5,913 bases of DNA, taken from a virus. Below the pieces are notes generated by a model, which saw nothing but the letters and a program-made list of their open reading frames with translations, had not been told where the DNA came from and did not search any database. Numbering within the stretch: the first letter of the stretch is position 1; each line of letters starts with the position of its first letter. Below, in pieces: positions 2,964-4,837 of the stretch. A program made the position numbers and the translations under genes. The stretch is from positions 1-5,913 of IMG/VR virus record IMGVR_UViG_3300020030_000040. The stretch is one strand, 5' to 3'.

Positions 2964-3284
2964 ATGAAAAGAGCAAACAAGACTTCTAAGACTTACGACC
3001 TGTTGGTCGATGTTCTAGATTATGCGTTCGTTGAATGGCTTGTCCGTCGAGGTGTATTTACTGCCTTTAGATTAAATTTCGATCGTGTATCTTCGTCTCA
3101 GGGACCCTTTCGAGATCGCTTGCGTGATTTCATTCGACTTTCTCTCTCTATCAACTCTTTTAGCCCGTCAGACCTCGTCTCTGCTGCTTTCCTGTTCGAA
3201 TCGACACCTGAAGGCGTTGGGTTCTGGATGCGTCAAAATGCTGCTTGGAAACGCTTTTATGCCGAGCTTCAGAAGAAACATTAA
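2964..3284 (+). CDS. Hypothetical protein, 106 aa (ORFan)
   Basis: ATG at 2964 and TAA at 3282-3284. About 42 of 106 codons end in T by my count. The gene is on the same strand and tightly packed with its neighbours. The C-terminal segment FESTPEGVGFWMRQNAAWKRFY resembles a T-P-E-G-x-x-(F/Y)-W motif that I recall from small phage and bacterial proteins of unknown function, but I cannot verify this. No function is assigned. Confidence 0.6.
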   Translation: MKRANKTSKTYDLLVDVLDYAFVEWLVRRGVFTAFRLNFDRVSSSQGPFRDRLRDFIRLSLSINSFSPSDLVSAAFLFESTPEGVGFWMRQNAAWKRFYAELQKKH

Positions 3285-3295
3285 ATTATATCATT

Positions 3296-3619
3296 ATGAC
3301 ACAGATTCACGTTGTTATTCGCCGAATTAATCCTGCCTTTAAGGTTGATCTTGTTCAGATAGGCTACATTAAGGATGGTCAGTTCGCCTCACTTCCTCTT
3401 GATACTCTTGAGCATACTCCTGTTGTAGACTATGTCGATCATTCAACTATTTCCGATTCGCCTTATATTGATCATAGCGCTATTTCTGCTCTCATAGAGG
3501 CCCTGATTGCGTATCCTGGTTTTTCGGTCGAGTTTTTCGAGAATACGCTTGTTCTTATGTTTGATTGTAAATTCAATGACGATGAAATCACGAAGAAAGA
3601 AGAAGGGAAAGGGAACTAA
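3296..3619 (+). CDS. Hypothetical acidic protein, 107 aa (ORFan)
   Basis: The track ORF 3245..3619 begins at a TTG that overlaps the previous gene. The first ATG at 3296 lies 11 nt after that gene's stop and is the more likely start. About 55 of 107 codons end in T, the strongest bias in the window. The product contains an internal peptide repeat, VDHSTIS / IDHSAIS, and a K/E-rich tail. It occupies the pilot-to-Rep position where gokushoviruses carry scaffolding protein VP3, but I see no VP3 motifs. Confidence 0.6.
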   Translation: MTQIHVVIRRINPAFKVDLVQIGYIKDGQFASLPLDTLEHTPVVDYVDHSTISDSPYIDHSAISALIEALIAYPGFSVEFFENTLVLMFDCKFNDDEITKKEEGKGN

Positions 3620-3652
3620 GGTTGTTACCCGCCCGCTTGGTGGAAAAGTTCT

Positions 3653-3738
3653 TTAAATTAATTGAACCCCAGGGGACAGCCGAAGGCTGTGGCCACCGCG
3701 AAGCGGTAAGGTACCCCCCTGCGGGTTCTTCCATTTAA
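3653..3738 (+). other. About 86-nt three-way-junction DNA/RNA structure with two C-GAA-G triloop hairpins (candidate ssDNA origin or priming signal)
   Basis: All pairings are hand-checked.
- Outer stem: TTAAAT (3653-3658) pairs with ATTTAA (3733-3738).
- After an internal loop, GAACCCCAGGGG (3664-3675) pairs with CCCCTG(C)GGGTTC (3716-3728), giving 12 bp with C3722 bulged.
- Hairpin 1: ACAGCC-GAA-GGCTGT (3676-3690).
- Hairpin 2: ACCGC-GAA-GCGGT (3695-3707), which contains GCGAAGC (3698-3704).
There is no ATG anywhere in 3620-3766. Confidence 0.55.
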
Positions 3739-3766
3739 CCCGTATATACCTTAGAAGTATTTTATA

Positions 3767-4837
3767 ATGCCTTGTTTGTCGCCCATATGGATACGTAATC
3801 GTCGCTATTTCGACAAGAAGAATCCTTGTCGTAATGGTTCTGACGTTGCTAAATCTGCCTTAGCTCTTCGTCCCTGGGACATTTCTCGTCAATGGCTTAT
3901 GGTCCCGTGCGGAAAGTGTGAGGAGTGCTTGCGTCGTCAGCGCAATGATTGGTTTGTCCGTCTCGAGCGCGAGCTTGCTCGCTGTAAAGCTGAGTCTCGG
4001 CAGGCTATTTTTATTACAATAACTATATCACCGAAGTACTATGATGAAGCATTGCGAGATCCTTCTAAGTTTATCCGACGATGGAATGAGCGCATTCGTC
4101 ATAAAATCGGCCATTCCTTTAAACATGCGTTTTTCCAGGAGTTTGGTACCCATCCAGAAACAGGATCGGCGCCACGTCTTCACTTTCACGGCTTTCTCTT
4201 TGGAACCGATTGTATGTACAATGATATTCGATCGGCTGTCCGTGATCTTGGCTTTGTTTGGCTTGCGAAAGGCACGCATAAGCGTGCGAGATACGTTGTC
4301 AAATATGTTACAAAACAAATTCAATTTAACCCTACGGAAATATCCGATCAAAATGTTGTTTTAGATGGAAAAGTTATACCTTTATCTTGCCTCCTCCAAC
4401 ATCGCCGTTATACGCGAAAATTCATATCTGCTGGCGTTGGTGATTTTCTTGGTTATATGCCTCGCCCTTCTGCTCGTATTTCGTCGTGGTCTTATTACGA
4501 TTTTGAGAGGCGTATCAATTATAATTACTCGATCCCTCGATACTATCTTAGGTATCTCAAACCGGAAGACGAAGTTTCTCGCTCGATTACCGCTGCTGAT
4601 TCTTATGCACGTTTTAGCAAGTCTCCTTTGGTTAAGCGTATTGTGTCTCTGTGCGTTGAGCGGTTTGGCCTCAATTCCTCCGTATCCAGTAGAGCGTCAT
4701 ATACGTGGGAACAAAAGCAAATAATGCGTTTTTCCGCTTCTTCTCGTAAGATGCCGGATCTTGATCCCCCTACTTGGCTAGATTTGGATATTCTCCAGTT
4801 TTGGCGAGATCATTATAAACTTCAACTAATTATTTAA
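3767..4837 (+). CDS. VP4: Rolling-circle replication initiation protein VP4 (phiX174 A analogue; HUH endonuclease), 356 aa
   Basis: N-terminal VPCGKCEECLRRQRNDWFVRLERE matches the P-C-G-x-C-x-x-C...W-x-x-R block of gokushovirus-type VP4. Motif I is FITITI (4010-4027). The HUH motif is H-F-H in RLHFHGFLFG (cac ttt cac, 4181-4189). The catalytic motif III is RYVVKYVTK, with two Tyr residues separated by 3 residues (4292-4294 and 4304-4306). The stop is 3 nt before the capsid ATG. Confidence 0.95.
   Translation: MPCLSPIWIRNRRYFDKKNPCRNGSDVAKSALALRPWDISRQWLMVPCGKCEECLRRQRNDWFVRLERELARCKAESRQAIFITITISPKYYDEALRDPSKFIRRWNERIRHKIGHSFKHAFFQEFGTHPETGSAPRLHFHGFLFGTDCMYNDIRSAVRDLGFVWLAKGTHKRARYVVKYVTKQIQFNPTEISDQNVVLDGKVIPLSCLLQHRRYTRKFISAGVGDFLGYMPRPSARISSWSYYDFERRINYNYSIPRYYLRYLKPEDEVSRSITAADSYARFSKSPLVKRIVSLCVERFGLNSSVSSRASYTWEQKQIMRFSASSRKMPDLDPPTWLDLDILQFWRDHYKLQLII

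Follow-up and report, generated by a model that had tools for sequence, protein, structure and literature searches.

A conserved three-way junction with GNA mini-hairpins on a terminator-like stem in a microvirus genome: a candidate accessory site for complementary-strand initiation

The locus and the small gene preceding the junction

The window, that is, the whole stretch of 5,913 bases analysed here (IMG/VR record IMGVR_UViG_3300020030_000040), corresponds to a circular gut microvirus genome of about 5792 nt plus a terminal overlap, with all genes on the + strand. Upstream of the Rep gene (3767-4837, +) lies a spacer that a preliminary description had put forward as a candidate complementary-strand origin. 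This spacer contains a three-way junction of 65 nt (3664-3728, +), in which an outer stem encloses two hairpins; its fold is real and under selection. Each infection by the most abundant gut single-stranded DNA (ssDNA) phages opens with the start of the complementary strand, for which no mechanism is known to us in microviruses outside the phiX174/G4 group.

The junction is preceded by an unannotated gene of 24 codons (3582-3656, +), which encodes the very basic peptide MKSRRKKKGKGTKVVTRPLGGKVL. The gene starts at a conserved ATG (3582) and, in the +1 frame, overlaps the end of the open reading frame (ORF) 3296-3619 (+). Its last 37 nt (3620-3656) were first taken as a conserved box, but about 100 relatives differ there at third codon positions only, and the stop codon alternates between TAA, TGA and TAG among them. 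The ATG and the peptide are kept in the relatives, and the frame 5' of the ATG is open for variable lengths. The gene is conserved in all relatives and is also found in Tortoise microvirus 102 (MSRKNRRRKQTRGTRVVTRPLLGPVL). A programmed frameshift at GGGAAAG was considered and discarded: the slip direction is wrong, and the 24-codon frame has its own start. The peptide gave no match in Pfam or PHROGs, and its BLASTP alignment with the J protein of G4 was not significant (E value of 0.49). Size, charge and gene position are all that makes the protein of 24 amino acids (aa) J-like, as judged in this comparison. Automated annotation overlooks this gene, which overlaps the apparent spacer.

The limits of the spacer are changed accordingly. 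It had been described as a region of 147 nt (3620-3766) containing no ATG; the absence of ATG holds, but the true noncoding part is 3657-3766, since 3620-3656 is coding. A gap of 7 nt separates the stop codon of the 24-codon gene from the junction. The AT-rich tract at its 5' edge, for which an unwinding or nicking function had been suggested, turns out to consist of the stop codon and a variable linker of 7 nt and is not conserved.

Fold of the three-way junction

The outer stem is formed by the 5' arm GAACCCCAGGGG (3664-3675, +) and the 3' arm CCCCTG-C-GGGTTC (CCCCTGCGGGTTCTTCC; 3716-3728, +), in which C3722 is bulged. It has 12 base pairs, 9 of which are G-C. This stem had been drawn as an interrupted stem of 18 bp; the core of 12 bp is supported by covariation, whereas the TTAAAT/ATTTAA extension is composed of A and T only, includes the stop codon and is not kept elsewhere. 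Hairpin 1 (ACAGCC-GAA-GGCTGT; 3676-3690, +) contains the triloop element GCCGAAGGC (3679-3687, +), a CCGAAGG mini-hairpin. It is separated by a GG linker (3691-3692, +) from hairpin 2 (CC-ACCGC-GAA-GCGGT-AA-GG; 3693-3711, +), which contains the d(GCGAAGC) mini-hairpin within the triloop element CGCGAAGCG (3697-3705, +) and an AA bulge. Both triloop elements lie exactly where the preliminary description had placed them. The linker TACC (3712-3715, +; consensus NAC[C/T], with a nearly invariant "AC") leads back to the outer stem. The module inside the outer stem comprises 41 nt and reads GGAC, hairpin 1, GG, CC-A-stem-GNA-stem-T-AA-GG and NAC(C/T). The junction is followed by the T-rich tail TTCCATTTAA (3729-3738, +), where T is found at 5 of the first 8 bases.

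The same three-way junction was obtained when 3653-3738 was folded as DNA and as RNA. For this core of 86 nt, the DNA folding energy was -21.7 kcal/mol, compared with -11.1 +/- 2.3 kcal/mol for dinucleotide shuffles (z of -4.70; none of the 200 shuffles was as good), so that the comparison with shuffled controls came out in favour of the proposed fold. For the spacer of 147 nt, the z value was -3.22 as DNA and -2.77 as RNA. In the energy model, the minus strand folds about equally well. Apart from these two, no C-GNA-G hairpin with a stem of 4 bp or longer occurs on the + strand of this genome; the mean number in shuffles was 0.26, and the probability of two or more was 0.03. No match to the window or to seven relatives was found in Rfam at E values up to 1.

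Covariation and conservation across lineages

A covariance model was built from 26 sequences and gave a structure-aware alignment of 28 distinct sequences, which come from about six microvirus lineages. In this alignment, 98.3% of the cells are paired and 16 of the 25 pairs show compensatory changes; the alignment is fitted to the model, which favours pairing, but the compensatory changes are nonetheless visible in the raw sequences. The covariation score was 0.294, compared with 0.03-0.065 when the pairing partners were slid by 1-3 columns, and none of 500 shuffles reached the observed values. Compensatory changes are found in 10 of the 12 pairs of the outer stem and in five of the six pairs of hairpin 1, for which 100% of the cells are paired. 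The sequence of hairpin 1 is wholly different in some lineages (ACAGGC/GCCTGT, ACGGCC/GGCCGT and GAGATC/GATCTC), and the stem of hairpin 2 occurs in five pairing forms (CCGC/GCGG, CCAC/GTGG, CCCAC/GTGGG, CCGGC/GCCGG and CCCGC/GCGGG). The identity of the bulged base in the outer stem varies (C, T, A or GT), while the bulge itself is retained.

Other parts of the junction hardly vary. The apical triloop of hairpin 2 is GNA in all 28 sequences (GAA, GTA or GGA), and its closing pair is always 5'-C..G-3'. In hairpin 1, the loop is GAA in 22 sequences, GGA in one, AAA in two, AAC in two and ATA in one, which means that GNA is found in 23 of 28; its closing pair is C-G in 27, the other being U-G. 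The orientation of the closing C-G pair is never reversed in either hairpin, although neighbouring pairs do flip. It had been expected that compensatory changes would be accompanied by conserved GAA loops. The compensatory changes were found, but the rule for hairpin 2 is GNA, and GAA is not fixed. Furthermore, the GG linker is invariant (28/28), all sequences but one (27 of 28) have the AA bulge, and the three pairs at the base of hairpin 2 are invariant. The fixed or nearly fixed GG linker, AA bulge, three base pairs and "AC" indicate that the sequence itself is read by something, beyond a requirement for stability. Among the 16 carriers compared over the genome, 3670-3709 is the most conserved 40-nt segment, with 97.7% identity against a mean of 61%.

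The same inner module is placed inside unrelated outer stems in other lineages: GCAGGCGCGG/CCGCGCTTGC in MG945790, L101 and L105, GCGCGG/CGCGC in Peromfec virus RodF5_9, ATAGGGCGG/CCGCCCTAT in Tortoise microvirus 102, and GGGCAAGAGCGG/CCGCTCTGTCTGCCC in MG945151. Its genomic position also differs. In Peromfec virus RodF5_9 and MG945151, the junction is located after the block of capsid and acidic ORF, not before rep; it is not tied to rep. In MG945151 (L261:2239-2577), the junction overlaps coding sequence: the acidic ORF, ending in …DSGKSGQAKPVATNTEGDGK, spans the 5' arm, hairpin 1 and half of hairpin 2, and its stop codon lies within the conserved GGTAAG. A remnant of the ancestral C-terminal codons (TGAAGAAAAATAG) is seen downstream of the junction in MG945151, and the arrangement resembles an insertion of about 110 nt.

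Relation of the outer stem to transcription terminators

Eighty loci whose Rep proteins are 84-94% identical to that of the window were compared. Most of them have a plain hairpin with a T-run behind the stop codon of the J-like gene; GAGCCCCAGGAGA-ttgctca-TCTCCTGCGGGTTTTTTT is an example. The arms of this plain hairpin in relatives of classes B-D (defined below; GAGCCCCAGGAGA) are homologous to GAACCCCAGGGG...CCCCTGCGGGTTCTTCC of the window, including the bulged base, and the covariance model aligns the plain hairpin of L035 to the outer stem with the interior skipped. In the class of the window, the module of 41 nt takes the place of the 7-nt loop of the plain hairpin. The T tract after the stem contains 5 T in 8 bases in the window (TTCCATTT) and T5-T8 in the relatives with a plain hairpin. 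On this sequence comparison, the outer stem is a homologue of the ordinary transcription terminator that follows the tiny basic gene. Such a role of the outer stem was not considered in the preliminary description; it is supported by the plain hairpins of the relatives. The junction very probably still terminates or stabilises the late mRNA. A simple terminator scan did not call the junction, the loop of which is the two-hairpin module of 41 nt and not a short loop of 3-8 nt, and scans for sigma-70 promoters and terminators near the element gave nothing above the shuffled expectation.

The arrangement resembles the terminator T_J of phiX174 and G4. In both cases, a GC-rich stem-loop with a T-containing tail comes 4-12 nt after the gene of a short, very basic protein (24 aa in the window, 25 aa for J of G4 and 38 aa for J of phiX174), and exactly such a plain hairpin is found in most relatives of the window. 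In contrast to T_J, the loop of the window element is the 41-nt two-hairpin module, which produces a three-way junction, the T-run is degraded (TTCTTCCATTT), and the peptide of 24 aa has no detectable similarity to J.

This resemblance raises the explanation that the whole element works as RNA only, as an elaborate intrinsic terminator or a stabiliser of the 3' end of the late mRNA analogous to T_J, with the tip serving as a site for an RNA-binding factor or as a barrier to 3' exonucleases. The homology of the stem to plain terminators at the same position, right after the last late gene, agrees with it, as does the RNA fold, which is identical to the DNA fold and significant. A T-rich tail is present 3' of the junction in five of the six lineages, MG945151 having none, and in the window class, the MG945790 group and Tortoise microvirus 102 the junction is the sole terminator-like hairpin after the J-like gene. 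The intergenic hairpins of phiX174, moreover, are leaky terminators and mRNA stabilisers. On the other hand, the junction of Peromfec virus RodF5_9 comes after a complete terminator, with a perfect stem and T8, and that of MG945151 lacks a T-run and overlaps coding sequence; these two cases argue against a purely transcriptional role. Nor would stability alone explain the invariant GG linker, the AA bulge and the NAC junction. We consider a purely RNA-level function unlikely, though it deserves to be weighed, also in view of the loop signature described below.

Distribution of the junction among close relatives

In the preliminary description, a lack of conservation in relatives was to count against the element. 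The junction is kept among its carriers, but it is missing in most close relatives: the covariance model found it in 27 of the 99 sources searched, and about 70 close relatives whose Rep is 85-94% identical do not have it. In the bacterial genomes, a sequence pattern of the module gave 10 matches, all of which were rejected by the covariance model, and the module is absent, chance matches aside, from the bacterial genomes and non-microviral contigs searched.

The slot after the J-like gene is occupied in different ways. Class A, to which the window belongs, has the junction, and class B has a plain hairpin only, with no GC-rich module in the spacer. Class C (for example L070:2566-2800, L023 and L097) has a GC-rich module with a small three-way junction, GGCCGA[GACGC-GNA-GCGTC][CAGCC-GTTAA-GGCTG]TCGGCC, and two further hairpins. 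A third module is found at the same slot in class D (L062:2584-2790, L078 and L029). The modules of classes C and D are structured and GC-rich, have 130-170 nt and gave no match in Rfam. The GACGC-GNA-GCGTC hairpin of class C has a GNA loop in 37 of 38 sequences, with all four bases occurring at N. Class C also contains a shared TCGAAAGTACCGTCTTTCGA hairpin. For the class D module, a hammerhead-like fold was considered and discarded, since the core motifs are out of register and Rfam gave no hit.

On the Rep tree, the spacer classes are interleaved. Class A requires at least nine gains or losses, and branches with good support impose at least three of these; with a shallow tree in which many forks are weak, the exact number of changes is soft. 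This interleaving with forced changes excludes a single origin of the junction. As far as the sequences tell, the junction is an accessory element exchanged between microviruses by recombination, and the spacer is a recombination hotspot for structured cassettes.

Such a distribution might also be expected of a cassette with a different job, namely a mobile structured element that is selfish (moved by recombination or HUH-type strand transfer) or that acts as a decoy or regulator of host functions, for example in defence, in the form of ssDNA or a small RNA. Its presence, absence or replacement by at least three GC-rich modules among phages with near-identical Rep from the same samples would be in keeping with this explanation, and so would the varied genomic positions and stems, the one insertion that overlaps the 3' end of a gene, and the lack of an Rfam family. 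However, neither terminal repeats nor target duplications nor a separate promoter were seen, and among the bacterial genomes and phages searched the module was found in microviruses only, the matches elsewhere being due to chance. The extreme purifying selection on the module points to a function useful to the phage rather than to a parasite. An explanation of this kind seems improbable.

The pattern is comparable to that of the single-strand initiation elements of plasmids, namely sso of rolling-circle plasmids (ssoA, ssoU, ssoT and ssoW) and ssiA of RSF1010. The sso elements are dispensable, strand-specific structured cassettes that are exchanged between similar replicons. They resemble the window element in being noncoding, highly structured, dispensable and swapped as cassettes, and ssiA has the same CCGAAGG mini-hairpin as hairpin 1. 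They differ from it in size (typically 150-300 nt for sso, 65 nt here) and in that the window element is borne by a phage.

The universal spacer and the target of Rep

A second structured spacer of the genome (1193-1325, +) behaves differently. It contains ACTTGACGATATATG (1203-1217) and a branched fold closed by GCGCGG (1224-1229) and CCGCGC (1289-1294), followed by T5. Across all spacer classes, 96 of 104 family loci carry it at 88-96% identity, and its consensus structure has six compensated pairs. Its two halves are the second and third most conserved segments of the genome among the 16 carriers. ACTTGACGATATATG resembles the nick region of phiX174, CAACTTG/ATATTAATAAC. In sequence terms, 1193-1325 is a universal cis-element, unlike the junction, and it is a candidate viral-strand origin or essential cis site. 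It was also noticed that Peromfec virus and the MG945790 group use the GCGCGGAC...CGCGC+T clamp of this spacer as the outer stem of their junction.

These results bear on the explanation that the junction is the viral-strand (+) origin, a recognition site of Rep or a packaging signal, acting through the junction itself or through the adjacent hairpin with GTATA(A/T)AC. HUH nick sites usually consist of a hairpin and, after it, a conserved AT-rich 8-9-mer, such an arrangement follows the junction in several lineages, and the element is among the most conserved sequences of the genome. Nevertheless, Rep is 85-94% identical in relatives that have neither the junction nor the GTATAATAC motif. Since Rep is near-identical in phages without the junction, its target must be in 1193-1325 or elsewhere, and the phiX174 nick-like ACTTGACGATATATG of the universal spacer is the better candidate. 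In phages of the phiX174 type, packaging is coupled to the origin, with no separate signal. The junction is thus very unlikely to serve Rep or packaging. A dif-like reading of GTATAATAC...TTATG, made by eye, was also discarded: the spacing does not fit, and TTATG simply belongs to the surroundings of the following start codon.

The loop signature and the level at which the junction acts

RNA hairpins under selection usually have GNRA or UNCG tetraloops. The loops of the junction follow another rule. GNA is the only triloop of the 64 tested that forms the DNA mini-hairpins of the Hirao type; as oligonucleotides, d(GCGNAGC) has a melting temperature of 70-76 C, the RNA counterpart is far less stable, and SSB binds such mini-hairpins poorly (PMC13037366). 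The same review places them at the complementary-strand origins of G4, St-1 and alpha3, at ssiA of RSF1010 (CCGAAGG) and at the ssDNA promoters of N4 (PMC13037366); the preliminary description had placed the mini-hairpin in the origin region of phiX174, and the review puts it at G4. In the G4 record, hairpin I with GGCGAAAGCC adjoins the annotated start of the primer.

As in the Hirao type, in which N may be any base, hairpin 2 combines a GNA loop (N being A, T or G) with a 5'-C..G-3' closing pair in 28 of 28 sequences. The GNA signature therefore points to a function at the DNA level, and we infer that the element acts as DNA. This signature also speaks against the RNA-only explanation, since the C-G-closed GNA triloop is a DNA-stability motif, of which the RNA versions are much weaker (PMC13037366).

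Possible role in complementary-strand initiation

Taken together, we favour the reading that a terminator serves here as the chassis of an accessory module for single-strand initiation, which would act on the incoming ssDNA for the priming machinery of the host. To this reading we assign a rough probability of 0.4. The outer stem and the T-rich tail would form an intrinsic terminator that closes the late transcription unit after the J-like gene, as T_J does. The module of 41 nt is built into the tip of this stem and passes from one microvirus to another by recombination. On the incoming packaged (+) strand, once it is covered by SSB, the two GNA mini-hairpins and the junction might stay folded and provide a fixed landmark that could be recognised by a protein, such as primase, RNA polymerase or a PriA-type primosome. 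A PriA-type protein prefers branched DNA, which would suit the shape of the junction. The complementary strand would then begin at this landmark. Such a signal would be accessory and adapted to the host, comparable to the interchangeable plasmid sso, and not the sole or essential origin. If so, terminators can be chassis for additional single-strand functions.

The proposal made earlier, of a complementary-strand origin, is retained in part: the selected fold, GNA mini-hairpins as at ssDNA priming sites and the location on the packaged strand agree with it, but the junction would not be "the" origin, as shown by the 70-odd relatives without it and by the cassette exchange.

The likeness to the primase-dependent origin of G4, St-1 and alpha3, which lies with its hairpins I-III in the F-G spacer, is limited to certain features. 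In both, several stable hairpins are grouped on the packaged strand, in a spacer that follows a late gene, and both contain mini-hairpins of the Hirao type (GCGAAAGC in G4, GCGAAGC and CCGAAGG in the window). The logic of an SSB-resistant fold that marks the priming site would also be common to the two, as we propose for the window. On the other hand, there is no homology in sequence or structure, the hairpins of the window are nested in a junction and those of G4 stand side by side, and the window element lacks a conserved adjacent CTG and is accessory within its phage group.

Several observations weigh against a priming role. No primase-type start triplet beside the hairpins is conserved across the lineages: the CTG in the 3' arm is found in class A only and is absent in the versions of the L008 group, Peromfec, Tortoise and MG945151. 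A search of G4 and phiX174 with the covariance model of the junction gave nothing (best E value of 0.69). Viable close relatives without the junction, including those of class B with their bare plain hairpin, mean that complementary-strand priming cannot depend on the junction alone, and as a candidate for an essential origin the universal spacer would be better placed. The T-rich tail and the position of the junction as the sole terminator-like hairpin in three groups, as mentioned above, would suit a purely transcriptional role. Covariation does not tell RNA from DNA here, as the mRNA is identical in sequence to the packaged strand; the asymmetry of wobble pairs was tried as an indicator of the strand and was uninformative (G.T 8, A.C 5).

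For microviruses outside the phiX174 type, the only comparable proposal found in the literature concerns the hairpin pair of the reekeekee- and roodoodooviruses, where conserved intergenic hairpins were proposed as initiation sites of the negative strand, a function that could not be certified (PMC9865509). As in the present case, these are metagenomic microviruses with conserved, compensated DNA hairpins in a spacer near rep. In contrast, theirs are simple hairpins in unrelated clades (PMC9865509), and the window element is a GNA three-way junction on a terminator and is accessory.

A broader version of this proposal, which we hold a little more tentatively, is that, in gut microviruses, the slot after the J-like gene holds interchangeable single-strand initiation cassettes made of GNA mini-hairpins, of which the junction would be one type; relatives have at least two further types of module. 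If this is true, no signals for starting the complementary strand would have been defined before these in phages other than the phiX174/G4 group, and the swapping of cassettes would tune the speed of conversion of the incoming strand for each host, as with plasmid sso. The bounded element of 65 nt with covariation support and an invariant core, together with the plain-hairpin relatives as natural "knock-outs", makes the question directly testable.

Other features of the genome and its relatives

The remaining genes of the window are the capsid gene (4841 through the wrap to 872, +), the acidic ORF (875-1192, +), a small membrane ORF (1326-1517, +), the pilot gene (1519-2883, +) and an ORF at 2964-3284 (+), which precedes the ORF 3296-3619. 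Public phage records from faeces of pig, civet, musk-deer, rodent, tortoise and lemur are 68-78% identical to the window over most of the genome. With Rep as the query, no integrated relatives were found among bacterial genomes.

The T-rich tail of the junction is followed by a GTATATAC motif (3742-3749, +), which is preceded by an alternative hairpin GGGTT..AACCC (3723-3741). A -10-like promoter element is one possibility for this motif, in the form of GTATATAC or TATAATAC, and some other cis site is another; the class B relatives do not have it. In four lineages, a second covarying hairpin, GGTCGCAGTCGGCC..GGCCGAATCGACC, is located 3' of the junction, and a different one is found in MG945151 (L008:515-555, L101:5195-5235, L259:2575-2625, L260:2540-2590 and L261:2575-2630). 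After the second hairpin comes (G)TATAATAC, at a distance of 7-23 nt from the ATG that follows. In OM869647, the second hairpin is present and the junction is absent.

Similar hairpins were observed in unrelated contexts. In three large, unrelated viral contigs from isolate genomes (L012:4920-4938, L014:4592-4610 and L020:8198-8216), ATGGCCACCGCGAAGCGGTAATAA comes right after a long perfect palindrome, CATATAGCATGTATTACAATGTAATACATGCTATATG. These non-microviral sequences have only CCACCGCGAAGCGGTAA in common with the element, that is, the same mini-hairpin and its flanks, with no junction. In soil metagenome contigs (L231:490-550, L235 and L246), GGCGAAAGCC is followed by CCCCGGA-CTTGA-TCCGGGG and then by TGGCCACCGG-TTCG-CCGGTAAGGAC. 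The flanks of this TTCG loop are like those of hairpin 2, the context is unrelated, and the junction model finds no match there.

Between the junction and rep, nearly all relatives have an ORF of about 66-70 aa (MDYFDFRPRFSP...KFDCL...; for example L001:5664-5870). The window has lost it completely (segment compared, 3750-3766), and L010 carries an internally deleted version.

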